A DNA stretch of 64,000 nucleotides from an uncultured Fibrobacteria bacterium (GCA_963716395.1 OY970309.1:768001-832000), one strand, 5' to 3'. Positions 16,515-38,103 are shown, counted from the stretch's first letter. Translations and numbers: made by a program. Notes: a model not told the origin generated them from the sequence alone.

Positions 16515-17552
16515 TCAATCCCGGTTGCGGATCGCGGCCAGACTGTCAGCGGCGGCCTGGCTCAAATCCTTGTCGCCGGCATTGAAATACGCGGCCACCA
16601 CGTTTTTGATCCCGGTTTTGCCCCGCCCATCGCCCAGGCGGTAGGCCGCCAGGAATTCTTCCAGCGCATGATCGTAGCGCCGCTGCCCGAAATAGATCAG
16701 ACCACGGCGCAAATGAAAATCGGCCTGATCGACGCCGGCGCGAATGCCGTCTTCGAGCGCCAGCAAGGCGAGAAAATCCTCGCCCTCGTGTTGGTGGATT
16801 TCGGCGATACGCAGGTAATAGTCGGCGCGCTTGGGCGCCAGCAGCAAGCCTTCTTCGTAAGCCCGCACCGCCTTCACGGTGTTGCTGTCGAGCTCGTAAA
16901 TCTGCCCGAGGTAGAAGTACGCATCGGCCGTAGGCCGTTCCATGCGCACCAGCGCCTCGTCCAGCACCTTTTCGGCCGCGGGGTAATCGCGAATGCTGGC
17001 GTCGGCTTCAGCCATCGACATATACAGGTCCGGCACCTCGGGGTCGATTTGCGCGGCGGCGTCGAAGTAGCGTAACGCATCGGTGACGTCGTCGACCCGG
17101 AGCGCGCATTCGCCCAGCATTTGCCGGGCGTGGAACGAGGTCTCTTCGAGGTGTTCGAGATGGGTGTAGGCCACCACGGCTTCGGGAATGGCGTCGAGCG
17201 TATAGTACACGTCGCCCAGCACCTGGTAGGCGCGCGAGAAGTTGGGCGCTTCTTCGAGGGAGCGGCGGTAGGCCACGATGGCTTTGGGGTAGGCATGCAC
17301 CTGCACCTGGCAATTGCCCAGGTTGAACCAGGCGAAGGAGCTTTGCAGGCCGTGCGCGTTGCGCGTGGCCTTCAGGTATTGCGCGGCGGCGGCAGAATAA
17401 TCGCCTTTGTCGTACAAGGCGTTGCCGAGCGTCAGCGGATCTTTAGGCGCCGCGTCGGGCGGTTTATCCACGCTTTGCGCCCCGGTCAGGCTCCAGGCCG
17501 AGAGCAGCAGCGCCGCGAGGGCCGGAAAACGGAAGGTGCGTGGGGTTCGCAT
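16515..17552 (-). CDS. Exported TPR-repeat protein (TtpD-like) of the TonB cluster
   Basis: Signal peptide followed by about 8 TPR-like repeats; last gene of the cluster. Confidence 0.8.
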   Translation of the reverse strand: MRTPRTFRFPALAALLLSAWSLTGAQSVDKPPDAAPKDPLTLGNALYDKGDYSAAAAQYLKATRNAHGLQSSFAWFNLGNCQVQVHAYPKAIVAYRRSLEEAPNFSRAYQVLGDVYYTLDAIPEAVVAYTHLEHLEETSFHARQMLGECALRVDDVTDALRYFDAAAQIDPEVPDLYMSMAEADASIRDYPAAEKVLDEALVRMERPTADAYFYLGQIYELDSNTVKAVRAYEEGLLLAPKRADYYLRIAEIHQHEGEDFLALLALEDGIRAGVDQADFHLRRGLIYFGQRRYDHALEEFLAAYRLGDGRGKTGIKNVVAAYFNAGDKDLSQAAADSLAAIRNRD

Positions 17553-17565
17553 GACGAAAAATCCG

Positions 17566-18318
17566 TTATTGATCGAAGTTGTAGCGGCGCCGCACTTTTT
17601 GCCGAACCGGCGTTTTCTGAATCATCGCCGGTTGAAAACGGAGCGTGCGCAAGGTGGCGATGGCCGAGGCCGCGAACCCGTAACCTTGGGGATCCTCTTT
17701 GAGCACGGAAATCTGTTCCGCAAACCCGGCTTCGTTGACCACGAACAGCAAATCGACGTAGCCGGTGACGCCTTCGCGTTCGGCGCGCGGGGGGTATTTC
17801 GGCTGCGGGTCCGGCCCCACGATGCGGGCGTCTTCGTCGGTTTGGCCGGGTTCATACACCATGGCCCCGAGCCCCGCGCCCTGGCCCCCGCCCGTGCCCG
17901 ATCCCAACAGGCCGCTGCGATCGCCGCCCGACACCAATTCCAGGCCCGCACCACCCACCGGGCTCAAGTCGATTTTAAGTCCGCCGCCCGGCAGCGAGGG
18001 CCGGTTCCGGGTCAGATTGGGCGGCCGCACCGACGCCACCTTGATTTCCTGGATTTCACGCTTCACGCTTTTTTCGACCGGCGGTTCGGCCAACACCAGT
18101 TGCCGCTCCACCACCTGCGGCTTCTTCTCGGCGCGCAGGGCGCGCTGGCGCAGCAGGGCTTGCATGAAGGGCACGGCCAGAAACAAGGCCAGGTTCACGG
18201 CCAGTGAAAGCAGAAAGAGCAGGGGCAGGGCCAGGACGTCGGAATTCCGGGCCGGCGAGACCTTGGCTTCCGGGCCGCCGTCACTCTTTGAGGGTGGAGA
18301 TGGAAACGCTTTTGACAT
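17566..18318 (-). CDS. tonB: TonB-family energy transducer
   Basis: N-terminal TM anchor; C-terminal PKYPPRAEREGVTGYVDLLFVV..G..FQPA domain. Confidence 0.88.
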   Translation of the reverse strand: MSKAFPSPPSKSDGGPEAKVSPARNSDVLALPLLFLLSLAVNLALFLAVPFMQALLRQRALRAEKKPQVVERQLVLAEPPVEKSVKREIQEIKVASVRPPNLTRNRPSLPGGGLKIDLSPVGGAGLELVSGGDRSGLLGSGTGGGQGAGLGAMVYEPGQTDEDARIVGPDPQPKYPPRAEREGVTGYVDLLFVVNEAGFAEQISVLKEDPQGYGFAASAIATLRTLRFQPAMIQKTPVRQKVRRRYNFDQ

Positions 18319-18697
18319 GGGCGAGATTGCAGGCGTCGAGCACGTCCACGGTTTTGGAGATGACGGCGTCGCGATCGGCCACGATGACCACGGCGCGATC
18401 CGGATCTTCGGAGACGTAATGCTTGAGCACGTCGACCAGCGCGGTGCGGCTCACCGGACTTTCGTTGATGTGGATGCCGCCGTCACGCGTGATGCCGATG
18501 AGCAGCGGCTGTTTGGGCAGGGTCTTCGAAGTCTTGGCCTTGGGCTTGGAGATGTCGATGCCGGTTTCCTGGGTGAAGCTGCTGGTCAACACGAAAAACA
18601 CCAGCAGAAAAAACAACATGTCGATCATGTTGATGAGGTTGATCTCCGCGGCGCGGCGCGGTTTGCGGCGGAGCCCGAATTCGTCGCCGTAATTCAT
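18281..18697 (-). CDS. exbD: Biopolymer transport protein ExbD
   Basis: EINLINMIDMLFFLLVFF with the conserved Asp; VVIVADRD..VDVLD. ATG 18697 overlaps the upstream stop. Confidence 0.92.
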   Translation of the reverse strand: MNYGDEFGLRRKPRRAAEINLINMIDMLFFLLVFFVLTSSFTQETGIDISKPKAKTSKTLPKQPLLIGITRDGGIHINESPVSRTALVDVLKHYVSEDPDRAVVIVADRDAVISKTVDVLDACNLAHVKSVSISTLKE

Positions 18698-19338
18698 GCG
18701 GACGCCTCGGACGAAAAGCGGCGGATCAGCACCGTGGCGCCGGCCACGCATTCGGCCTCGATGGCGTCGGCGCGGTTTTGCAGTTGATCGTGCAAAAGCA
18801 GCAGGGGAAAGGCCACCACCAGCCCGGCTTCGGTGACCATCAGGGCCTGGGCGATGCCGCCGGCCAGCATGGCGGGATTGCCCGCGCCGTACCGGGTGAT
18901 GGCGTGGAAAGTGGCCATGATGCCGTTCACGGTGCCGGTCAATCCCAGCAGCGGTGCGGCCGCAGCCAGCACGGCGATGCTGCCCAGATGGCGGTAGAGG
19001 CGGGTGCCGGCGCCCTGCAGCACCTCGCGCGTTTTGCGCACCATGGCCGCGCGCCCCTGGTCGCGCGTGGCCGCCAGGCCGGCCACCACTTCGGCGAACA
19101 GTCCCCGCAGCCGCGGATCGGAGAGGAGCTGCCGCTCCAGCGCGCCCGCTTCGGCTGCCGCTTCGGGCCCCTGTAACAAACGCGTTACTGCACAGCGCTG
19201 GCGCCGGAAATGCCACCAGCGTTCGAACACGAAGAACCAGCCGGCCTGGCCCACCAGGAAAATCGCCCCCATCACCCAACCGCCCTGGCGCAGGAGGTAG
19301 AGCACGTTTTCGGCCAGCGGAACGAGGCCCGAGACCAC
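18694..19338 (-). CDS. exbB: MotA/TolQ/ExbB proton channel protein (ExbB)
   Basis: GGWVM, APLLGLTGTVNGIMATF, AGGIAQALMVTEAGL; GTG start at 19338. Confidence 0.9.
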   Translation of the reverse strand: MVSGLVPLAENVLYLLRQGGWVMGAIFLVGQAGWFFVFERWWHFRRQRCAVTRLLQGPEAAAEAGALERQLLSDPRLRGLFAEVVAGLAATRDQGRAAMVRKTREVLQGAGTRLYRHLGSIAVLAAAAPLLGLTGTVNGIMATFHAITRYGAGNPAMLAGGIAQALMVTEAGLVVAFPLLLLHDQLQNRADAIEAECVAGATVLIRRFSSEASA

Positions 19339-19340
19339 GG

Positions 19341-20834
19341 TTATCCCCTCGGCCAGAGGGCGTTCAAGGCCTTCATGGCATGGAATTCGGCCGCGGCCAC
19401 GAGGTCGTCGACCCGGTTGGCGAGAAAATTGTGCCCCAGCAGGGTGGGAATGGCGATCAGCAGGCCGGTTTCGGTGGCGATTAGGGCTTCGCCGATGCCG
19501 CCCGCCAGCAGTTTGGGATCGTTGACGCCGTGCTGGGTGATGATTTGGAACATGGCGATCAGTCCCGACACTGTTCCCAAAAGGCCCAGCAGCGGGGCGG
19601 CGGCGGCCAGCACCGACAGCGTGGTGAGGTGGCGTTCCAGACGCGGCACTTCGTGCAGCATCAATTCGCGTACGGTTTTCTCGGCCTGATCGCGATCCAG
19701 AGTCGGCTTCAGCTCCGATACGGCGCCCAGTACGCGCAGCACCAGGCTGGCGGGTTTCTTGCCGCACAGTTCGCGCGCGCCCGACATGTCGCCCCGTTCG
19801 AGGCGGTTCAAGGCTTCGGCGCAGAGCGCGGTGCCGGCGCGGCTCCGCAAAAGTTGCAGTAGTTTCGTGAAGAACAAGCCGATCACGACGAAGGGGATGA
19901 GCAGCAACGGCCACATGAAGAAACCGCCGGTTTTGACCGCGGTCCAAAGACGCACCACGAAATTCTGTTGGGTCTCATGGGTGTAGGTCTTGACCGAATT
20001 TTGGGTCAGCAGCACGTCCACCGGCAACAGCACCGGTTTGCCCGGATCCCGCTCCAGCGATTGCATGGCGTCGGCCAAAACCTGCGAAGTCTGGGGCGGC
20101 AGATCTTCGCGCCAGTCGAAAGGCGTAAGCGCGGTATTGGGCGGATTGCGGAGCAGTAAGCCCACCTGTCCCGATTTATCATCGCGGTAGGCTTCGGTGA
20201 TGGTGCCAAGCCGCAGGAGCAACCCTTGGCCCGGAGTTCGGTTGGCGCGGGTGAAGCCCCGCTTTTCCAGCGTGATGGCGCGGGTCAGGGCCAGTTCCGA
20301 CCGTTCGAAATCCATCAGATCCGCCAGGATTTCTCCCGGTGCTTCGCGTTTGGTGTCGGCGCTTTGCAGCACCTGGTTCAAAGCCTGGATGCGCTCGGGA
20401 ATGCGGGCGGGAAATGACTGCTCCAAGGTGCCCGAAAGCTCGCGCGCCTTATCGTGCAGGGTCGACGCCAGCGAAAAAAATTGCACGCGCGCAGCCTCGT
20501 CCTGGGCTTCGGCCTCTTCGGCGTCTTGCAGCAGGTTCTGGATATCGGCGTGCAATTGATCGGCCGCCTGCATCTTCAGTTCCAGCTTCGACTTGAGATC
20601 GTCGTAATCCTGATTGAAGCGTTCGTGCGCCTCGACGTCAAGCTCTTTGTCTTGCCAGCGCTTGGCGATGACCTGATCGCGCGTTTGCTTAGCTTCGTCG
20701 AGCTCGGCCTTGAGCCCGGCGATTTTGTCGCTTTGATCGTTGACCGTGGCCACCTGTGCGCGCACAAGGCTCGGCAGGCCCGCGGCCAGCACCGCAATCC
20801 ACATTCCGGCGGCGGGAACTCCGAGGTGCTTCAT
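19341..20834 (-). CDS. TtpC-like ExbB paralog with a long periplasmic coiled-coil N-terminus
   Basis: Signal peptide, coiled coil, LPVDV motif, then APLLGLLGTVSGLIAMF..DPKLLAGGIGEALIATETGL. Confidence 0.85.
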   Translation of the reverse strand: MKHLGVPAAGMWIAVLAAGLPSLVRAQVATVNDQSDKIAGLKAELDEAKQTRDQVIAKRWQDKELDVEAHERFNQDYDDLKSKLELKMQAADQLHADIQNLLQDAEEAEAQDEAARVQFFSLASTLHDKARELSGTLEQSFPARIPERIQALNQVLQSADTKREAPGEILADLMDFERSELALTRAITLEKRGFTRANRTPGQGLLLRLGTITEAYRDDKSGQVGLLLRNPPNTALTPFDWREDLPPQTSQVLADAMQSLERDPGKPVLLPVDVLLTQNSVKTYTHETQQNFVVRLWTAVKTGGFFMWPLLLIPFVVIGLFFTKLLQLLRSRAGTALCAEALNRLERGDMSGARELCGKKPASLVLRVLGAVSELKPTLDRDQAEKTVRELMLHEVPRLERHLTTLSVLAAAAPLLGLLGTVSGLIAMFQIITQHGVNDPKLLAGGIGEALIATETGLLIAIPTLLGHNFLANRVDDLVAAAEFHAMKALNALWPRG

Positions 20835-21643
20835 GGCCGCACCGCCGCGCTTGCGGGAACCTCAACCGGCATCGGCACCAATTGGGGAGACACCTTGTTT
20901 TCAGCCACCTGAATGGCGGTCTGAATCCCGGTCTTGTCGTCTTCATTCAAACTATGGTCGCGCCAGACATAACCCGAATCGGATTTGGCCAGATAGGCCA
21001 GCTCTTTGCCGTCGCTCGACGCAAAGGCCAGCAGTACCGCACCCAGGCGCACATAGGTGCCCTCCCAATGTCCGCCGTCGGTGGCGGTGTACACGCCCGG
21101 GTACACTTCGGTGTCCTGTCCGAAATCGAGCGAGGCCTGCACCAGCGAAAACAGCCGCGCCAGGGTTTCGTCGACGGGGAGCGACTCTTCCTGATTGGCC
21201 TTGGCCAACTCCTGCCAGTCGGAAAGCCGCTTTTCCTTTTGATAGGGAAAGTCGCGGTTCAGCCACACCATCATGGTGTCGATCTCTTGGCCGATGGCCG
21301 CCCGGAATTGCTTCTGCTTGGCCTGAAAAGAGGCGGCCTGGCTCTTGTATCCCGCCGCGCGCCGTCGCTGCACCGCGGCTTCGCGTTTCAAGCTGTCGAT
21401 GCTGGCATCGGTGAGCTGCATTTGCTGCTTGAGCGCATCCATCCTTTCGGTTTTCCGCTTCTGGAATTCTGCGGCGCGGGCCAATTCGTCTTTGTGCATC
21501 TGCTGTTCGCGCTGGGTTTCGCGTTCGACCCGATCCAAATCGCGCTGCAGCGAACTCAGGGTTTCCTGCGCCCACGTTGCGCCCGCCAACCCCAGCACCA
21601 GCCAAAACCGCGCTGCGCTGGGAAATAACCGAAACCTGCCCAT
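20831..21643 (-). CDS. DUF3450/TtpB-like periplasmic coiled-coil protein
   Basis: Signal peptide, coiled coil, DFPYQKEKRL, YVRLGAVLLAFASSDG; position directly before the TtpC-like gene. Confidence 0.75.
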   Translation of the reverse strand: MGRFRLFPSAARFWLVLGLAGATWAQETLSSLQRDLDRVERETQREQQMHKDELARAAEFQKRKTERMDALKQQMQLTDASIDSLKREAAVQRRRAAGYKSQAASFQAKQKQFRAAIGQEIDTMMVWLNRDFPYQKEKRLSDWQELAKANQEESLPVDETLARLFSLVQASLDFGQDTEVYPGVYTATDGGHWEGTYVRLGAVLLAFASSDGKELAYLAKSDSGYVWRDHSLNEDDKTGIQTAIQVAENKVSPQLVPMPVEVPASAAVRP

Positions 21644-21735
21644 CGTTCGGAAGCCCCTTTGAAAATGAAAACGAAAATTCTTCGGAACCAATAACTTACA
21701 AAGGGCGTGCGGACCGCCTGAACCCTGCTTAACCC

Positions 21736-30643: not shown

Positions 30644-31413
30644 GGCTCAACCGCTATCTGGCCTGGTGCGGCCTGGGCAGCCGCCGCGCCGTGGAGCAGT
30701 TGATTCGCGCGGGCCGCGTGCGGGTGAACGGCGAAGACGCGGATTTGGCACAGGCCGTGGTTGATGGCGACCGCGTCGAAGTGGATGAGAAACCCGTATA
30801 CCCGCCATCCGAGCCGGTGTACGGCATGCTGAACAAGCCCGTCGGGGTGTTGTGTTCGCGCGGCGACACGCATGGACGCACCACGGTCTATCACCTCCTG
30901 CCCAAAGATTGGCGCGCCCTGCATTCGGTGGGCCGCCTCGATCGCGACAGCCGGGGTTTGCTGCTCTTCACCAATGACGGCGCGCTGACGCAGGGCTTGA
31001 CCCATCCCCGCCACGGCGTGCTGCGCACCTATGCCGTGCGCACCGCCGCGCCGCTGTCGGAAGACGATCAGCGTCGCCTGCGGCAAGGCGTTGAAGTGGA
31101 ACCCGGAGTGATTTTTCAATGCGCCACCCTGCGCCTCGGGAACGAAGGCTTTGAACTCGGTTTGCGCGAAGGGAAAAAGCGCGAAATCCGGCGGCTGTTG
31201 GCGTCGCTGGGACACAGGGTGGTAGACTTGAGACGAATCGCGTTTGGCGGAGTCGAACTTGGAAATTTGCCGGAGGGGGCTTCGCGCCTCCTGTCCCGCG
31301 ACGAGGTGGAAATTTTGCGTCAGGCCGCCGCCCTGGACGCCGCTGCTGCTGTTGTTGTGGCCGGCGCTGCCCGGCCGCGGCGCCGACCGGTCGGACGCAA
31401 CCGGCACCGTTAG
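30640..31413 (+). CDS. RsuA/RluB-family rRNA pseudouridine synthase
   Basis: S4 domain MRLNRYLA..GSRR; LNKP, VGRLDRDSRGLLLFTNDG, EGKKREIRRL. Confidence 0.93.
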   Translation: MRLNRYLAWCGLGSRRAVEQLIRAGRVRVNGEDADLAQAVVDGDRVEVDEKPVYPPSEPVYGMLNKPVGVLCSRGDTHGRTTVYHLLPKDWRALHSVGRLDRDSRGLLLFTNDGALTQGLTHPRHGVLRTYAVRTAAPLSEDDQRRLRQGVEVEPGVIFQCATLRLGNEGFELGLREGKKREIRRLLASLGHRVVDLRRIAFGGVELGNLPEGASRLLSRDEVEILRQAAALDAAAAVVVAGAARPRRRPVGRNRHR

Positions 31414-32752
31414 CGCACCCGTCTTTCTCGCCCTTCCTGAAACCGGCGTGTTACGTCACGCCCAGATGCGCCTGAGCGGCGACATGCTGTATTACAACAC
31501 CCAGGCCCTTCCCACCGGCGCCGATTCGGGCGATACGGCGGCTTCCCCGATGCTCCATTATCAGGGCAACCTGGCCTTCGGGTTCGAAAACCGCGCCGAA
31601 CTTTCGTTTCAATACGGCCGGGGATTTTCCCTGGGCCTCAAGGCCTTGCTGCTGGAAGAGGACGCCTATCTGCCCGACGTGGTGTTCGGCATCCGCAACC
31701 TGTTCGAAAGCCAGGAAGCCTATCTGTATGGCTTGCCCGATTCGCTGAACAAAAGCATGCGCGGAGAAACCTTTTTCGGCGCGGCCAAGCATCTGAGCCC
31801 GAACACCCGGCTGACCTTGGGCGCGTCGCTGCTCAACGGCGCCAATAAAAGCCCGGTGGGATTTTACGGCGGGTTGGAATGGAGTCTGGGCGCGGACGCC
31901 GTGGCTTCGTATGAAGTTTTCGAACGCTTTTCCGATTTCCATCAATTGCTGGGCCTGTCCTGGCGGATGCAGAATCTGTTTTCGCTGACCGTGGCGCTGT
32001 CTGAAGTGCAATCGTGGTTGCGCCAAAACGGCGAGTGGGGTTTTTATTTCTCGCCCGCCCAACCCCAAACCAACGGCTACGACAGTCCCGGTATTCGGGT
32101 CTCGCTATCGGTGTTCGCCTTCATGCCCAAAATCGATCACCGCACCTTCGCCGAACGCCTCGCCGATCTCGAAGAAAAAAACCGCACGCAGGCCCGGCAA
32201 TTGGAGGCGTTGAACGACAACCTGGCCACCCTGAAATCGGAACAGGAGGTGACGCGCCACGCGATGTATCAATTGGCCAACGGCAACCGCGGTCTGGCGC
32301 TCGAAGGCCCCGAAGCCGAATTTCGGGTGCTGGTCGATTTGTACCAAAGCGAAAACGTGGATCCCGCCGCCGTGCGCGCGCAGGTGAACAAGTTGTTGGC
32401 CTATCAGGATAAGGCCCACGCCGTGCTGAATCAAGCCGCGCGCGACACTTCGGCGACCGACGAAAAACGGGTGGCGGCCCTCCTGGCCATCGCTACCAGC
32501 CGCGACAGCACCTATGCCCCGTTGCTCGTGTCGCTGTGCCGGGACCACAGCCCCCGCATCCGCCGCGAAGCGATCACGGCCCTGGCCCAGGTGCAACCGC
32601 GCCTGCTGGCCACCGCCGTGACGCCCTTGCTGAAAGACCCCGACGACGCGGTGGCCCTGACGGCACGCATGGCCTTGCAGATGGCAAAGCCCGCCGCCGA
32701 TTCGGCCCGGGTCGACTCCTCCGCGGCAGCGCCGTCGCAGCCGCCCCGATAG
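31244..32752 (+). CDS. Exported protein: predicted beta-barrel, coiled coil and HEAT-like repeats (start uncertain)
   Basis: Hydrophobic signal-like segment PLLLLLWPALPGRGA; amphipathic beta strands (SLGLKALLLEE..PDVVFGI); coiled coil; D.SPRIRREAITAL / LLKDPDDAV repeats. Confidence 0.65.
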   Translation: MAESNLEICRRGLRASCPATRWKFCVRPPPWTPLLLLLWPALPGRGADRSDATGTVSAPVFLALPETGVLRHAQMRLSGDMLYYNTQALPTGADSGDTAASPMLHYQGNLAFGFENRAELSFQYGRGFSLGLKALLLEEDAYLPDVVFGIRNLFESQEAYLYGLPDSLNKSMRGETFFGAAKHLSPNTRLTLGASLLNGANKSPVGFYGGLEWSLGADAVASYEVFERFSDFHQLLGLSWRMQNLFSLTVALSEVQSWLRQNGEWGFYFSPAQPQTNGYDSPGIRVSLSVFAFMPKIDHRTFAERLADLEEKNRTQARQLEALNDNLATLKSEQEVTRHAMYQLANGNRGLALEGPEAEFRVLVDLYQSENVDPAAVRAQVNKLLAYQDKAHAVLNQAARDTSATDEKRVAALLAIATSRDSTYAPLLVSLCRDHSPRIRREAITALAQVQPRLLATAVTPLLKDPDDAVALTARMALQMAKPAADSARVDSSAAAPSQPPR

Positions 32753-32845: not shown

Positions 32846-35305
32846 TTAGAAGCCAGCCCCCAGGGATAGGAGCATGTTGGCGTAGGCGCTGTAACCCGCG
32901 CCGCCCGGGCCCCAGCCCGCATGCAGGGAGAATTGGGTGATCAAGTCGCCGATGGCATCCTTATAGCGCAGGCCGCCCCCGATGCGCTGGTAGAATTTCT
33001 GTGCCATGGGAAGATCCTCGCGCCACAGGCACGGGCCCGCGTAAAAGCCCTGGCCCAAGCTGCTGTAGGCTTCGATGCGACTGAAGAATACGGCATTGTC
33101 GTCGGCCGTGCTTTGGTTCACGATTTCACCGATGACCCCGGAGTATTGATTCACCAACTGGTTGATCTCCTGATCGCGCAGGAGCAGGCGGAAGCTGCCG
33201 GTGTCGGCCAGCACCAAAGCCTGATGCACGTGGCCCGTGAACTCGGCCTCGACCCAGGAAATCAGCGAATGGGAAAAGGCCCATTCGCCTTCGATGCGGC
33301 CGTAGACGCCGCCCGTGGCGATATTCGCAGCGGGCAGGCGCAAGGTGAAGCCGAGATCCGTCCACAAGCGCCGGCCTTTAGCCTCTTGATCGCGCCCCAT
33401 GAGGTTGCCGCCGAAAAAGATAAAGGGATATTCGCGGTCCGATTGGGCCGAGAGGCTCAGCACCTGGCCGAGATTGGGCGAGTACAAGCCGATGCGACCC
33501 GTACCGAAATCGGCGGTCACCGTCCAGGCCGTCATATCGCTTTGCACGCGGTTCTCCAGAAACCAGCGCACCTTGCGCGGCGGCGGATCGGCGCGAAAGG
33601 CCACCCATTGTTCGGCCGTCTGACCGCCCAAGTCCGTGGCCGTTATGCGCGCGGGATAAATTCCGGGGCGGCCGGCTGTGAAGGACAGCTGGCGCCCGTC
33701 CCATTGGATCGGACTGCCCGGAGGCACTTCGGCGTGCAGCGTCACCGGCTCGCCCTGCGGGTCGACGGCCACGGGCCGGTAGCGCAGCGGCGGATCGCCG
33801 GCGCGGGAACGCCAGGCAGCGAGTTCGGTCACGAATTGCGGCGGTTGGGCCTGGCGCACCGGCAGGTAAATGCGGTGCACCAGAAGCGACCCCTGCACTT
33901 CGAAATGAAAATCGAGCTCCTGCGTGCCCGCCTGCATGGGGCGCAAATGCAACACGCCCCCGGCGAAGGCGGTGCTGTCGGAACCTTCGACCTGCTGCAG
34001 TACCACACCCTGCGCGGCCCAGGCCGCGGCGGTGGCGCCGGCTTTCCAAGTGTAGGACCGGCCCTGGAGCAACGTGTCCCAGGGCAGGTCGACCCGGATT
34101 TGCCCGGACCAGGGGATCTCGTCGGGGGTGATCACCTGCACGGCATACTGGAAATCCCGGCGCGACCCCAACGGGTCCTGCACGGCCAGGGAAAATGTCT
34201 GGCGCGACCCGGCCAAAGTGCTGTCGGGCGTCCAATCCAACTCCAGGCTGTCGGGGTCGAAGCGCATGCCGGGCGCCAGGGCCGTGGGCCAGACGCGCAG
34301 CAAGTAACTCGCGTGATCCGGGTCGACGGGTTCGGGGCGAAAGCGCCAGGGCTGGCCGATCACCGCCACCGGCTTAGGCGTGGCGGCCAACAGGGGCGGA
34401 CGGTTGAAATGCAGGCGCAGCGAAAACCCCAAGGTGTCGCGGCCGCCCTTGGCATCGCGCGCTTCGGCCGTCAGGCGAAAGCGGCCGCCTACGGTGGGCG
34501 TGCCCTGCAGTTCGTGCCGGGCCGCGTCCCAGGTGAGCCCCGCCGGCAGATCCCCCTGCAGACGGTAGGTCAGGTCGGTTGCGGGCGCGGTGGGATCGAT
34601 GGCCCAGACCTGATAGAAAAAAGGTTGGCCCACAAACAAAAGCGAATCGGGCGGAGGCGAAACGATGCGCGGTCCGCCCCGTTCGGCCACGCGCCGCACG
34701 CTCGTGAACCGCAACTGATCGAGCAGGGCGGCGGGCGCCAGCAAGGTGAGGTACCCGTCATGGAATTCGACCGTGAGCTGGTTGCGCAGCGGCGCGCCGC
34801 CGAAGGTGTCTTCGAACACCTTGATCAATTCCGCGCCGAGCTTGAAGGCCTTGCGCTCGCGGGGGCCCGTCACCAGGGCGGCGCGCTGTTCCCACGACGC
34901 GCTGCGGGTCTGGCCCTGCACGCGCACGACGGGCGCGGCGCGCAATTTTTCCAGGGCGTTCTCCGCCTGCAAGGTGTTCCACACGTCGCCATCTACCAGC
35001 ACGGCTTTGTTTTGGAAACGCATGATATCGCCCTGGCCGAGGCCGGCGCTGAGATCATGCACCAAAAATACGGGTTGGCCGACGGCCTTGAAGCGCGCGG
35101 CCAGGCGCGCCCCCACCGCCGAGTCCGAAAGGGTGAGCAAACCGTAATAGTTGAGCGCTTCATTGCCGTTGTCGGCCCGCGCCGGGAGAAACAAAAAGCC
35201 CAGGGCGACGATCAAACTGCCCCAGGAAAAAACGCGGGACCCGCTACGCCGCAGGAAGCGATGCCGCCGCCCGAGCGCGCAGCGATCTTTTTGCTCTGTG
35301 ATCAT
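32846..35305 (-). CDS. Putative Ig-domain (He_PIG/cadherin-like) repeat outer-membrane surface protein
   Basis: Signal-like segment; LPAGLTWD..ELQGTPT, PGMRFD..LDWTP and D-P-x-G repeats; beta-rich C-terminal region ending in LSLGAGF. Confidence 0.75.
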   Translation of the reverse strand: MITEQKDRCALGRRHRFLRRSGSRVFSWGSLIVALGFLFLPARADNGNEALNYYGLLTLSDSAVGARLAARFKAVGQPVFLVHDLSAGLGQGDIMRFQNKAVLVDGDVWNTLQAENALEKLRAAPVVRVQGQTRSASWEQRAALVTGPRERKAFKLGAELIKVFEDTFGGAPLRNQLTVEFHDGYLTLLAPAALLDQLRFTSVRRVAERGGPRIVSPPPDSLLFVGQPFFYQVWAIDPTAPATDLTYRLQGDLPAGLTWDAARHELQGTPTVGGRFRLTAEARDAKGGRDTLGFSLRLHFNRPPLLAATPKPVAVIGQPWRFRPEPVDPDHASYLLRVWPTALAPGMRFDPDSLELDWTPDSTLAGSRQTFSLAVQDPLGSRRDFQYAVQVITPDEIPWSGQIRVDLPWDTLLQGRSYTWKAGATAAAWAAQGVVLQQVEGSDSTAFAGGVLHLRPMQAGTQELDFHFEVQGSLLVHRIYLPVRQAQPPQFVTELAAWRSRAGDPPLRYRPVAVDPQGEPVTLHAEVPPGSPIQWDGRQLSFTAGRPGIYPARITATDLGGQTAEQWVAFRADPPPRKVRWFLENRVQSDMTAWTVTADFGTGRIGLYSPNLGQVLSLSAQSDREYPFIFFGGNLMGRDQEAKGRRLWTDLGFTLRLPAANIATGGVYGRIEGEWAFSHSLISWVEAEFTGHVHQALVLADTGSFRLLLRDQEINQLVNQYSGVIGEIVNQSTADDNAVFFSRIEAYSSLGQGFYAGPCLWREDLPMAQKFYQRIGGGLRYKDAIGDLITQFSLHAGWGPGGAGYSAYANMLLSLGAGF

Positions 35306-35330
35306 TGCGCTTGGCACTTTGCCTTCCTCT

Positions 35331-35882
35331 TCAATATCCCCGCGTGCGTTTGGTCCATTGGCGAAAGGCGGCTTCCATAGCCTTGGACTCCGGGCTCGAA
35401 CCGTAGTCGACGGTGTCGGCGCCCACGAACCATTCGCCTTCATCCTGGCTCCACAAAACGCGGCCGCGGCGAAAACTGTGCGTATGGCCCTGGCCCTGCA
35501 CGCGCAAGGCGACAAAGCTGGCGGCGTCGGGCAAATGCCGCAGGATGAGCAGATTGCTGTCGGCTTGGGCGGCTTCGATGTAAATCGTATCGCCCAGACG
35601 CGTGAACAGGGCCTTGGCGTCACCCAGTCCGAAGGCCGCCCGGTAGGGTTGCACCGCCGCGCTGTCGTCGGAAGCATGCGAAAGGATGTGCACGGCCTCT
35701 TGCGACCAGTACAAATCGGTTTTGGCCGTAACGGTTTTGGCCTTGTCGAGATTGACCAGCGGCACCATGAAGATGATGCGCAACAGCAACAACACCGTGA
35801 TGATGGTGAGAATGTCCTCGAAGCTGATGGCCTCGCCCAGGGCCGCGCTGTTGTCCAGGGTTCGCCGCCGCCGTCGCATCAC
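35331..35882 (-). CDS. MotB/ExbD-like single-TM protein with an unrecognised periplasmic domain
   Basis: Basic N-terminus, ISFEDILTIITVLLLL with Asp at the start of the TM helix; start overlaps the stop of the MotA-like gene. Confidence 0.65.
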   Translation of the reverse strand: MMRRRRRTLDNSAALGEAISFEDILTIITVLLLLRIIFMVPLVNLDKAKTVTAKTDLYWSQEAVHILSHASDDSAAVQPYRAAFGLGDAKALFTRLGDTIYIEAAQADSNLLILRHLPDAASFVALRVQGQGHTHSFRRGRVLWSQDEGEWFVGADTVDYGSSPESKAMEAAFRQWTKRTRGY

Positions 35883-36973
35883 GCTTCCCCCGGCGCCGGC
35901 GGCGCCGCCGCCTGCTGCTTGGCGGCCAGAAAGGTCCGGTATTGCTTTTCATAATCCCCCAGTTCGCCCACGCGTTTGCCCACCTGCGCCTGAATGCGCG
36001 CGATTTGATCCAACTGCGTCGCCGAGTTGCGCAAGGCCTCGGTGAGCTTGCTCAGGTGGGTTTCAATCGCCTGCTGCGCATGCATCAGCGAGTGCTCCAT
36101 TTTTTCCCGGCGATCCTCCAAAGCATGCAATTGCGCCTCGGCGCCGTAATGCTTGCGAATCCACGGCTGCAGGCGCGTCAGATTCCAGTCGTTGATATGC
36201 GAGTTCACCATGTCGAAACCGTTGAGCACGCGTTCGAGCAGTTGCACGGTTACGAATTCGATGAAGATGGAAAGCGCCGTGGCGATGAGGGTGTTCAGAA
36301 TGGCGTATTGGTCGCCGTCGATGGCCTTGGCGATGTCGGCGATGAATTTGAACTCTCCCTGGCTGTCCGACAGGCCGAGTACCGCGCGTTTCATGGGGGG
36401 AAAGGTGAGGATGAGTCCGATTAAAGTGCCCAGGAAACCCAGCTTGAGCGTGGTGCGGTTAAGCGAGATATGCCAGGACAGGGCGCGGCTGTCGCCCAGC
36501 GAGCGGCGCTCCCAGGCGCTGTCGAGCAAGGCGTCGGAGCCTTCGACTTCGCCGCGCAGACCGAGTTCGATCCAGCGCAGCAGAAGATCGCGCAAATGCC
36601 CGCCGGATGTATGCTCCAGCAGGGTTTGCCGCAGCGCTTCCAGGTCGGGCTCGTCGCCGGCCGCGCGCAGCACTTCGATCACTTTTTCGGTGCCGGCCAC
36701 GCCCGGCAACAGGCGCCGGATCTGCGCCAGCGCCAGCAGTTGGCCGAACACGAAGATGCCGTAAATGAGGGCGAGAAAGAAAAAGAGAAAGCGGTCTTGC
36801 AGCCAATTCCCCTGAATCATGTACCATCCCCCGGCCGTGGCCGCGGCCACCAGCGGCAGGGGAAAGCTGGCGCAGATGCGCGCCGTTTTGCGAATGCGGC
36901 GTAAAGCCCGCTGCGCCTGCTCCAGCGGGTTTTCAGACAGTTGGAAAGACGGGGAGACCGGCGGTGCGTTCAT
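35879..36973 (-). CDS. MotA/TolQ/ExbB-family (ZorA-like) ion channel protein with a C-terminal coiled-coil tail
   Basis: Two N-terminal TM segments, cytoplasmic helices, LKLGFLGTLIGLILTF and AILNTLIATALSIFI, then about 90 aa of heptad-like tail. Confidence 0.75.
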   Translation of the reverse strand: MNAPPVSPSFQLSENPLEQAQRALRRIRKTARICASFPLPLVAAATAGGWYMIQGNWLQDRFLFFFLALIYGIFVFGQLLALAQIRRLLPGVAGTEKVIEVLRAAGDEPDLEALRQTLLEHTSGGHLRDLLLRWIELGLRGEVEGSDALLDSAWERRSLGDSRALSWHISLNRTTLKLGFLGTLIGLILTFPPMKRAVLGLSDSQGEFKFIADIAKAIDGDQYAILNTLIATALSIFIEFVTVQLLERVLNGFDMVNSHINDWNLTRLQPWIRKHYGAEAQLHALEDRREKMEHSLMHAQQAIETHLSKLTEALRNSATQLDQIARIQAQVGKRVGELGDYEKQYRTFLAAKQQAAAPPAPGEA

Positions 36974-38103
36974 GGTTTCACTCCGGGCCGGCGCAGAAGG
37001 GGATTGTCCCAATCGATGCGCACGGCGGCGTTGAGGTGGACGTCTTCTTTGTTGCGGAAGGCCAATTCCAAATGCAGTACGGTAAAGCGCACGGCGCTGG
37101 GGAAGGATTTTGGAACCGGGATACCGAAGTCGGCGGGAAAGAAATCGGCCTGCACCTGGGTGTAGATCGCGCCGCCGATGAGAAAGCCGAAGCCGAAGGG
37201 GCCGAAGGGCGATGCCAGGTCGGCCAATCCGATTTCCTGCACCGGAGTGCGGTAGGCGTCGCCATCGAAATGGATGGAGTAACGCAGCGCCGCGAATTTC
37301 AGATGCAGGGCCTGGGACAAATTGCCCGGCAGCGTGACGCCCTTCTCCCATTGACGCACCAGCACGCCGGATGTGCGTGTGAGCGCCGCATGCGACGCAT
37401 CGATGTCCATCCAGTAAAACTCGGGAAAGGGCCGGTCGGCGAGATCGACCTCCCACTTCACACCCGGCACGCCTACGGCCGCATGCCACCACCAATATCC
37501 CGGGCCCCAGGCTCCCGCATTTCCGGTGTCGGCCGGATCGAGAAGCTGCTGCGACAGGCCGCCGCCGTATTGGCTGCGGTGCACGCCGACTTCGAAAGAC
37601 GTCCACCGGATGGGCCGATCCCGCCAAACAAAATCCACCCGGCGATCGAACTCGGGACCGGCGCCTTTGACCAAGGTCACCGCGCTCTGAAAATCCAGAC
37701 TGACGCCGGTCGGCCATTGCAGCCAGTCAAAGGCGCTGTCCCGGCGATCCCACAGGCCACGCCATACATTGGTTTCGGATGGCCGGGGCGTTCCCATGGG
37801 CTCCTCGCGGCGGACGGTGCCCCCCAACAAGGCCAGCGCAAAGCCGGGTAATTCCTGAATCTCCGTACCGGCGCGCAACAGCACCAACTGGGGATGCGCC
37901 GTGTCTTTGGCGGGACGGCGCACCAGCACCTGGTAATTTCCCGGCGGGGGATTGCCGGCGGCATCGGCAGCGCGCCAGAAGGCGCGCACCTGCGCGGTGT
38001 CCCGGATTTCGAACAGCGAGAGCGAGTCGGCGGCTGAGGCGGCGGCGACAAGCAACCCCGTCAGTCCTACCACGCAGCACGTGCGGACGCGGAAGAAAAT
38101 CAT
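36970..38103 (-). CDS. Exported beta-rich hypothetical protein, possibly an outer-membrane barrel
   Basis: Signal peptide ending AASA-AD; Trp/Phe/Gly-rich alternating strands; stop overlaps the next start. Confidence 0.6.
   Translation of the reverse strand: MIFFRVRTCCVVGLTGLLVAAASAADSLSLFEIRDTAQVRAFWRAADAAGNPPPGNYQVLVRRPAKDTAHPQLVLLRAGTEIQELPGFALALLGGTVRREEPMGTPRPSETNVWRGLWDRRDSAFDWLQWPTGVSLDFQSAVTLVKGAGPEFDRRVDFVWRDRPIRWTSFEVGVHRSQYGGGLSQQLLDPADTGNAGAWGPGYWWWHAAVGVPGVKWEVDLADRPFPEFYWMDIDASHAALTRTSGVLVRQWEKGVTLPGNLSQALHLKFAALRYSIHFDGDAYRTPVQEIGLADLASPFGPFGFGFLIGGAIYTQVQADFFPADFGIPVPKSFPSAVRFTVLHLELAFRNKEDVHLNAAVRIDWDNPLLRRPGVKP

Follow-up and report, generated by a model that had tools for sequence, protein, structure and literature searches.

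The four-gene cassette and its conservation

The DNA analyzed here, referred to as the window, is a stretch of 64,000 nucleotides (nt) from an uncultured Fibrobacteria bacterium (GCA_963716395.1, OY970309.1:768001-832000), part of a one-contig genome of 3.75 Mb, and it harbors between positions 32846 and 38103 a cassette of four genes that is a real, conserved and apparently undescribed system built on a known motor core. An initial annotation had proposed four co-oriented genes at this locus, with a candidate ion-driven motor pair between two outer-membrane proteins, and translation confirmed four open reading frames (ORFs) on the minus strand, with the junctions and the gene 2 core and gene 3 (SFEDIL) motifs that had been quoted. 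Gene 1 (36970-38103, 377 amino acids, aa) overlaps gene 2 (35879-36973, 364 aa) by the four nucleotides ATGA at 36970-36973, and gene 2 overlaps gene 3 (35331-35882, 183 aa from a GTG or 182 aa from the next ATG) by the four nucleotides GTGA at 35879-35882. Gene 4 (32846-35305) encodes 819 aa from the ATG at 35305 and lies 25 bp beyond gene 3, a gap that shrinks to 13 bp with an alternative in-frame GTG start at 35317, directly after a purine-rich stretch resembling a ribosome-binding site. The G+C content of the cassette region equals that of the rest of the window, and promoter and terminator scans of the cassette gave results at chance level. Our literature searches, which covered titles and the beginnings of abstracts, with subscription papers and bioRxiv supplements beyond reach, returned no description of such a cassette.

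The four-gene arrangement is not a product of chance. Considering only loci with enough flanking DNA, from genome and metagenome collections that overlap and include related, non-independent members, gene 3 always followed gene 2 (49/49 genome loci, 39/39 metagenome loci), and the same order held for the N-terminal domain (N-domain) of gene 4 (46/46, 30/30) and for its barrel (40/40, 24/24). Gene 1 preceded gene 2 in 49/50 and 32/33 loci, the two exceptions (L086 and L136) having a divergent unrelated gene upstream. The four genes are therefore syntenic in related genomes, their order being kept in nearly all informative loci. The gene trees of the cassette also correlate (Spearman 0.64-0.87), a result for which shared ancestry alone would suffice. 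In L075, L095, L106/L147, L115, L117, L129 and L150 an apparent frameshift interrupts one gene of the cassette, reflecting either assembly error or decay.

Gene 2 was detected in 52 of the 251 Fibrobacterota genomes, representing 9 of 21 families, with frequencies ranging from 10/10 in family f4 and 24/28 in f1 to 7/46 in f15 and 2/113 in the largest family, f5, which we take, as a guess at a name still to be confirmed, to be the gut Fibrobacteraceae. The gene-4 N-domain occurred in 51/251, i.e., in all gene-2 genomes except G036, whose gene-2 match ends within about 30 bases of a contig end. These tallies include one unpublished genome (G025), which also contributes one sequence to one alignment and on which no conclusion rests. 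A pattern scan of one genome per species in 185,579 species recovered 52 loci, of which 45 bear Fibrobacterota names, three are titled only "bacterium" and four carry Bifidobacterium or Bifidobacteriales titles; the latter are probably mislabels, since three of the four could be placed in the gene-2 tree and all three fell among Fibrobacteria sequences. Named gene-2 homologues belong to Fibrobacteria and Chitinispirillum, including CHISP_2195 of the cultured species Chitinispirillum alkaliphilum, which indicates a Fibrobacterota host for the window.

Predicted motor subunits and outer-membrane proteins

Judged from its sequence, gene 2 is a remote and divergent A subunit of the MotA/TolQ/ExbB family. 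The PF01618 model matched the window protein below its cut-off (E=0.19) and the homologue P0109 above it (24.1 bits, cut-off 22.9), and it reached E<=0.01 in 18 of the 46 family members; an hhalign comparison of the gene-2 family with the seven canonical paralogues of the same genome gave E=3.5e-4, and a profile search of PDB sequences returned nothing useful. A profile search of 1.84 billion representatives gave 44 matches at E<=1e-30, 51 at E<=1e-10 and 72 in total, with full-length MotA-like outsiders appearing only at about 1e-5 or worse, which shows a compact family that does not cluster with canonical ExbBD, TolQR or MotAB. Hydropathy indicates four hydrophobic segments (about aa 30-55, 58-85, 174-195 and 222-245). 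The pore-lining core (aa 172-248, 36230-36460, minus strand) has R173, K177, G179, F180, G182, T183, T228 and E239 invariant in 46/46 sequences, and K177, T183, T228 and E239 are also invariant in 77/77 sequences of a second homologue set. A pore ring of two threonines has been described for ExbB and TolQ, comprising T148 and T181 in ExbB, where the prolines P141 and P190 are conserved as well (PMC12215075). T183 and T228 match T148 and T181 by register, the former through hhalign and the latter by eye, and the MotA/TolQ/ExbB core that had been recognized in gene 2 is upheld as that of a remote PF01618 relative in which both pore threonines are invariant.

The C-terminal tail of about 90 aa that had been annotated as a coiled coil is indeed present (aa 263-352, 35918-36187, minus strand), its coiled-coil nature being a prediction. 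It is helical and cytoplasmic by prediction, variable in length and ends in a conserved tip of the R..EL..YE.QYR type; measured in 127 sequences from the W263 motif to the YE.QYR-type C-terminal motif, it mostly spans 70-89 aa, often 120-149 aa and at most 226 aa, and the longer tails (120-149 aa) show an internal duplication. Just beyond the limits of the family are two further groups of tailed MotA-like proteins (P0296, P0297, P0299, P0303 and P0309; P0298, P0300, P0305 and P0307), most of which score no higher than the Pfam cut-off.

Gene 3, numbered here from the ATG (182-aa form), has the architecture of a B subunit, with a basic N-terminus, one transmembrane (TM) helix carrying E21 and D22, a conserved linker (P40-L-V-N-L-D) and a periplasmic domain. 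An acid stands at position 21 in 63/63 diverse homologues (E in 55, D in 8) and in 86/86 of a closer set, and position 22 is acidic in 43/63 (D in 31, E in 12; otherwise S in 14, N in 4, T in 1 and A in 1) and in 79/86 of the closer set. Alignment with the MotB-like ORF of the same genome places D22 in the canonical MotB register. The membrane aspartate of the SFEDIL motif, to which the initial annotation had assigned the motor carboxylate, is therefore only partly vindicated: a membrane carboxylate exists, but the residue that is always acidic is Glu21 and not Asp22. In the clade with Ser or Thr at position 22, Gly220 of gene 2 is replaced by Glu in 14 of 15 sequences, possibly through a single event.

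The AlphaFold2 model of gene 3 shows one long TM helix followed by a confident periplasmic domain (mean predicted local distance difference test score, pLDDT, 87.5), in which two helices, a seven-stranded meander sheet and a C-terminal helix are predicted (aa 55-182, 35334-35717, minus strand), an order of elements that is not Rossmann-like. No match to PF02472 (ExbD/TolR) was found in the 63 gene-3 members at E<=0.05, and a genome-wide search gave eight PF02472 matches, none of them at the cassette; OmpA, MotB and vWA Pfam models matched none of the 63 members, which had no convincing Pfam family at all, and the window protein had no OmpA/MotB match in Pfam or NCBIfam. The absence of a recognizable OmpA-like or ExbD periplasmic domain, as first annotated, is thus supported by both profiles and model. 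Among structures, VIA-align ranked TipC2 first (Z 7.5; root-mean-square deviation, rmsd, 3.7 over 111 residues), with polo boxes at about Z 6, and the TipC2 likeness may merely reflect a common arrangement of elements in the model; no ExbD, TolR, OmpA-like or vWA chain stood among the best 50 rows, which does not by itself prove a novel fold. Foldseek gave no match at E<=0.001 and the ESM Atlas no usable match. An SH2 domain, suggested by a weak PDB-profile match (E=0.35), was discarded for lack of support from the fold searches.

Gene 4 encodes a signal peptide, a conserved N-domain (aa 48-206, 34688-35164), a stalk of four immunoglobulin (Ig)/cadherin-like domains (aa 209-573, 33587-34681; PF05345, E=2.2e-13) and a C-terminal β-barrel modeled with 12 strands, a long loop with a helix and a terminal Phe (aa 577-819, 32849-33577), all on the minus strand. 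The export, β-rich nature and Ig-like repeats attributed to it beforehand are consistent with the signal peptide, the PF05345 match and the model. The stalk resembles the cadherin-like domains of SraP (profile E=4.8e-12; structure Z 12.0, rmsd 9.8 over 175 residues), and the barrel is closest to that of the BrkA autotransporter (Z 12.6, rmsd 4.8 over 198 residues), followed by KdgM, FapF and intimin-type barrels at Z 11.1-11.6 (we take structure 5g26 to be intimin). Among 68 homologues the stalk measures 270-299 aa in 15 (three Ig domains) and 360-419 aa in 53 (four Ig domains). In the AlphaFold2 model the last Ig strand (520-530) and the first barrel strand (537-545) are joined by some six residues without a helix, and the junction is similarly short in 51 of the 53 four-Ig homologues, being about 12 residues longer in the other two; for the 15 three-Ig homologues the counted offsets are uninterpretable, though those inspected look alike. 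The termini of such barrels lie in the periplasm. Because the stalk could not easily thread the pore through so short a junction that lacks a linker helix, it is probably periplasmic in the model rather than surface-exposed, and a stalk of three or four domains suggests a ruler of periplasm width; the four domains of the GldM shaft measure 18 nm (PMC9389320).

No part of the cassette evolves more slowly than the N-domain (median identity 57% and 42% for the two halves, compared with 35% in the gene-4 barrel and 18% in the gene-1 barrel), which is the predicted binder of gene 3. The second half of the N-domain may have a POTRA-like order of elements, according to our own reading of a low-confidence secondary structure. 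In the gene-2 homologue P0260, the first half of the N-domain is inserted between TM1 and TM2 (hhalign E=2.6e-7; hidden Markov model E=1.3e-11), the sole such case among the proteins and loci scanned. When two copies of gene 3 (aa 36-182) were modeled with the N-domain, ESMFold2 scored the complex at 0.67, compared with 0.21 for the best control. Among solved complexes 116 of 157 attained the mark, as did 2 of 215 mismatched pairs; these counts apply only roughly to this prediction. The runs shared at least 73% of contacts with a partner pLDDT of at least 82, and the modeled contact lies almost wholly on one gene-3 copy, on one face of the sheet, with the lowest-error contacts including the near-invariant F151, Y159, S144 and E147 of gene 3 and R141, L118 and G88 of gene 4 (gene-4 numbering). 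Recall of a solved complex is unlikely, since gene 3 has no sequence relative in the PDB by profile search. The prediction supports binding of the gene-4 N-domain to the gene-3 sheet.

Gene 1 comprises a Sec-type signal peptide (about aa 1-24), a small N-domain (about aa 25-100) and a predicted outer-membrane barrel of some 12-14 amphipathic strands with one long conserved loop, as read from the alignment and strand periodicity, in agreement with its annotation as an exported β-rich protein. No match was found in Pfam, NCBIfam, PADLOC or PDB sequences, and its nearest named ESM Atlas clusters, outer-membrane barrels at 0.82-0.83, serve as a lead only. No homology was detectable between the two barrels of the cassette, and homology of the gene-1 N-domain with the first half of that of gene 4, plausible by eye, was rejected (E=0.04, probability 1.3%; whole proteins E=0.35). 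Two genomes (G167 and G212) carry the full cassette plus an extra adjacent gene-1/gene-4 pair with an intact N-domain and no motor genes (L165:5771-9834 and L166:5758-9923), followed by a convergent DUF6174 lipoprotein-like gene. This gene order suggests that genes 1 and 4 probably form a separable outer-membrane module that one motor could serve in trans. In L127 and L148 (9995-11737), a gene-4 paralogue consisting of three Ig-like domains and a barrel, without the N-domain, directly follows gene 4. In one clade of six loci (L097, L102-L105 and L145), lipoproteins bearing acidic double-disulfide repeats are encoded directly downstream of gene 4 (e.g., L102:10927-12453, L104:11198-12961 and L145:9882-12238), some of them with fibro-slime/PA14 domains, the fibro-slime domain being present in two of the four that were scanned. 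Fibro-slime proteins have been proposed to act in cellulose attachment in F. succinogenes (PMC4668043), and the sequences of these lipoproteins suggest a hint of a surface ligand.

Outside the cassette, the flanks consist of lineage-specific housekeeping genes, such as a sugar-kinase-like gene upstream in 26 loci (labels read from the sequences), with no universal fifth gene and no recurrent effector or regulator. The cassette is mostly single-copy and stably placed, and it had no match in phage or plasmid collections. The presence of PilM did not separate cassette-bearing from cassette-lacking genomes in the five genomes compared. Eight loci of genus g1 (L074, L078, L080, L081, L082, L094, L118 and L129) have a co-oriented gene for an exported protein of about 360 aa downstream of gene 4, which is absent from that place in the window. 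The convergent neighbor in the window (31244-32752, plus strand) is predicted to be exported and has an unusual architecture, with a β-rich barrel-like N-terminal part, a coiled coil and C-terminal HEAT repeats (PF13646, E=1.2e-8); no such gene was found beside the cassette in related loci.

Proposed mechanism and its alternatives

We consider it rather probable that the cassette encodes a TonB-less motor of the 5:2 type coupled directly to a stalk anchored in the outer membrane. In such a trans-envelope machine, specific to Fibrobacterota, gene 2 would form the ring and gene 3 the central dimer, with ions moving by way of the T183/T228 ring and the carboxylate of gene 3, mainly E21; the motor residues are present in the sequences, and the 5:2 stoichiometry, ion flux and rotation would follow from membership of the family. 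Gene 4 would be held in the outer membrane by its 12-strand barrel, as modeled, and its three or four Ig domains would span the periplasm on the sidedness suggested above, so that the stalk, whose tip is predicted to bind one face of the gene-3 sheet, would replace the inner-membrane transducer TonB or TolA. Gene 1 would be the second barrel, paired with gene 4 in the separable module. The motor may then do mechanical work on the two-barrel module, and, by analogy with GldL, the gene-2 tail may hold the ring against a cytoplasmic partner.

As regards that task, our preference for an energized action on a surface ligand or on a lipoprotein adhesin, as in adhesion, release or movement over surfaces, is a doubtful one, placed only slightly ahead of gated import through the barrels, which is at least as doubtful. 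An adhesion or gliding role is possible. A bolder version, speculative although we hold it somewhat less doubtful than either task, would be an inverted Ton system, in which a rotary 5:2 motor using Glu as ion carrier drives the periplasm-spanning Ig shaft of an outer-membrane barrel, gripped through a new B-subunit fold, and in which one motor serves interchangeable two-barrel modules that move or release surface adhesins, possibly as a surface-motility or polymer-capture machine of Fibrobacterota. The initial proposal of an undescribed motor coupled to a surface adhesin or barrel holds insofar as an undescribed, syntenic and TonB/TolA-free pair does occur with two barrel proteins, but the Ig domains of gene 4 fit a periplasmic stalk that reaches the motor better than a surface adhesin.

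Several observations weigh against direct coupling of motor and stalk. Prolines equivalent to ExbB P141 and P190 are absent from gene 2, position 176 being L in 41 and M in 5 of the 46 sequences and position 237 being L, F, I, V, M or A, and the invariant K177 and E239 adjoin these positions; moreover, 20 of the 63 B subunits lack an acid at the canonical-register position 22. The N-domain has low confidence in the AlphaFold2 monomer (blocks of pLDDT 40-63). The interface as a whole is not more conserved than its surroundings (0.53 vs 0.52, p=0.47, for gene 3; 0.57 vs 0.62, p=0.84, for the N-domain), the conserved contacts were selected after the fact, and inter-protein covariation, underpowered at an effective number of sequences of 45, gave no outstanding pair (top z 4.0-4.6). 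The P0260 fusion is one sequence without genomic context, and its closest genome relatives lack the insert. Regarding the outer-membrane module, motor-less pairs occur in two genomes of one genus only, the lipoprotein link covers six loci of one clade and has no counterpart in the window cassette, and gene 1 was found neither elsewhere in G051 (91% complete) nor upstream in L136.

The same predicted contact between genes 3 and 4 would also serve an inward-facing sensor of the Zorya kind, in which the stalk replaces the peptidoglycan anchor and fixes the gene-3 dimer to the outer membrane, a surface change (contact, phage or membrane spacing) switches the motor on, and the turning gene-2 ring and tail recruit an unlinked cytoplasmic effector. 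The helical cytoplasmic tail with its conserved tip would suit this role, as the anchored B dimer and rotating A tail of ZorAB recruit effectors (PMC11946911), and 1 of the 46 gene-2 members touches the ZorA model (E=0.0036). We nevertheless regard it as unlikely: the tail ranges from about 70 to 226 aa, whereas truncations of ZorA abolished function (PMC11946911), and neither a recurrent effector or regulator in the housekeeping flanks nor a match in phage or plasmid collections was found. Phage sensing as suggested in the initial annotation is accordingly disfavored, given that single weak ZorA match, the lack of an adjacent effector and the stable neighborhoods. The mostly single-copy and stably placed cassette is also unlike defense islands. 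Still less probable is an autotransporter-like adhesin that exposes the gene-4 N-domain and Ig domains, with gene 1 as a helper barrel and the motor either acting through an unlinked TonB-like protein or merely sharing the operon. The best barrel matches do include autotransporter translocators, the Ig domains resemble the SraP adhesin, the genome has five TonB_C proteins, and Ton and Tol motors can cross-complement (PMC12215075), but the model lacks a pore-threading helix, the junction is very short across homologues, and the N-domain is the most conserved part, occurs as a fusion within a motor subunit's periplasmic loop and, in the model, docks on gene 3. All five TonB_C matches have ExbBD/TolQR clusters of their own.

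Comparably improbable is an envelope tether or spacer linking the inner and outer membranes at a distance set by three or four Ig domains, in which ion flow only cycles the link on and off or has ceased, as an additional stabilizer resembling Tol-Pal. Its fixed stalk length, the housekeeping-like neighborhoods, the loss of the canonical prolines, the invariant K177 and E239, which could lock the pore, and the failure to find TolB_N in the cassette-bearing genomes G004 and G010 would agree with such a role. However, the threonine ring and membrane carboxylate are strictly kept, the window genome also has a TolB match beside a TolQ/TolR-like cluster, 199 of the 251 genomes have no gene-2 match, and a tether has no obvious need for two barrels with long outer loops or for motor-less barrel pairs. 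A diverged conventional motor, either a flagellar stator paralogue or the missing replacement of GldLM that powers the SprA translocon, is the least probable of these readings; in its favor are four TM segments, the MotB-like register around the carboxylate and the presence of SprA in a genome without a GldL/GldM match over the cut-off. Such matches were lacking in five genomes and at the cassette, in searches in which no control genome passed the cut-off either. FliG was detected in 124/251 genomes and the cassette in 52; among the other genomes of genus g1 the cassette was found in 7/9 and FliG in 0/9, and a flagellar stator was rejected. At about 1.561 Mb the genome has a distinct canonical MotA with a MotB-like ORF after it. 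An obligatory motor for type IX secretion was rejected as well, SprA being near-universal in Fibrobacterota (242/251; 2020817-2021665 in the window genome).

Direct outward coupling thus remains our preferred explanation, and it would bear on a question that is still debated for Ton, Tol, Agl and Gld, namely how 5:2 ion motors transfer force across the periplasm, partly because the connectors in those systems are flexible or belong to very large machines. As a self-contained set of four genes, with a connector that is folded and a motor-stalk interface that is predicted and open to mutation, the cassette would allow rotation and pulling to be distinguished directly, and it points to an energized surface function in Fibrobacterota lineages.

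Relation to known motor systems

The cassette shares with Ton and Tol-Pal a PF01618-type A subunit with a two-threonine ring, a single-pass B subunit with a membrane acid and, if direct coupling is correct, the delivery of inner-membrane energy to outer-membrane proteins; like Ton with its TonB-dependent receptors, some genomes apparently have several outer-membrane modules per motor. It differs in lacking an ExbD profile match and a TonB or TolA in the operon, in the four hydrophobic segments and tail of gene 2, in which equivalents of ExbB P141/P190 are absent, and in a connector that has its anchor in the outer membrane and a predicted direct contact with the B subunit. TonB-dependent transporters are plugged barrels of 22 strands, unlike the 12-stranded gene-4 barrel. 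As initially annotated, the cassette contains no ORF for TonB/TolA, flagellar or ZorC/D/E proteins. A canonical Ton/Tol unit was rejected as an identity for it: five such clusters occur in the genome, each accompanied by a TonB_C match, and all five of these matches lie beside canonical ExbBD/TolQR clusters; action of a TonB in trans on the cassette motor is possible. One canonical Ton-type operon lies within the window itself (16515-21691, minus strand) and encodes two upstream coiled-coil-like proteins, of which the latter has a C-terminal ExbB domain, and then another ExbB along with ExbD, TonB and a TPR protein, supplying two of the seven PF01618 matches of the genome.

In GldL-GldM (PorL-PorM), as proposed here, the central dimer uses a shaft of several domains to carry force across the periplasm, and a cytoplasmic tail is part of the pentamer; the GldM shaft is about 18 nm long and the GldL tail has been proposed as an anchor (PMC9389320). 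However, gene 2 is homologous to MotAB and GldLM is not; the shaft is a part of GldM there but of an outer-membrane barrel protein in the cassette, which has no GldK/N ring genes and does not co-occur with SprA. The Agl-Glt machinery of Myxococcus likewise links a TolQR-type motor to an outer-membrane barrel platform with a lipoprotein adhesin (CglB, according to abstracts). It uses the ExbD/TolR-like AglQ/S and the TonB-like GltG, and ExbD/TolR-like and TonB-like genes are absent from the cassette (Glt profiles were not searched). Agl/Glt core homologues reported in Fibrobacter (PMC3169522) represent a system distinct from the cassette.

With MotA-MotB and PomA-PomB the cassette has in common a four-TM A subunit and a MotB-like spacing around the carboxylate, and it differs in its long C-terminal tail, in the lack of an OmpA-like match in 63 B subunits and in its occurrence in aflagellate genomes. 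A classification of MotAB relatives from 205 genomes includes at least F. succinogenes S85 as an entry for Fibrobacteres (PMC12505986). ZorA-ZorB also combines a helical cytoplasmic tail with a 5:2-type core, but the ZorA tail comprises residues 223-729 (PMC11946911), that of gene 2 being much shorter, and the cassette has two outer-membrane barrels, a stable chromosomal context, no match to a peptidoglycan-binding domain and no ZorC/D/E. Zorya was rejected as an identity, with no PADLOC match for the four window proteins. Type Va autotransporters share the 12-stranded C-terminal barrel (BrkA-like) and differ in the α-helical linker that threads the pore before strand 1, which the gene-4 model lacks.

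The nearest conceptual precedent is provided by the TPH-vWA motor partners, in which a TolQ-like ring carries a non-ExbD periplasmic domain on its central dimer; B subunits bearing vWA domains have been proposed to transmit force directly, with Hallerella as an example from Fibrobacteria (PMC12204202). The periplasmic domain of gene 3 is modeled as a meander sheet and not as a vWA fold, it is encoded by a single gene rather than a heterologous pair, and the outer-membrane partner with its Ig stalk is encoded alongside. Overall, the motor family would gain from the cassette a new type of connector, with its anchor in the outer membrane, and a new domain for the B subunit.

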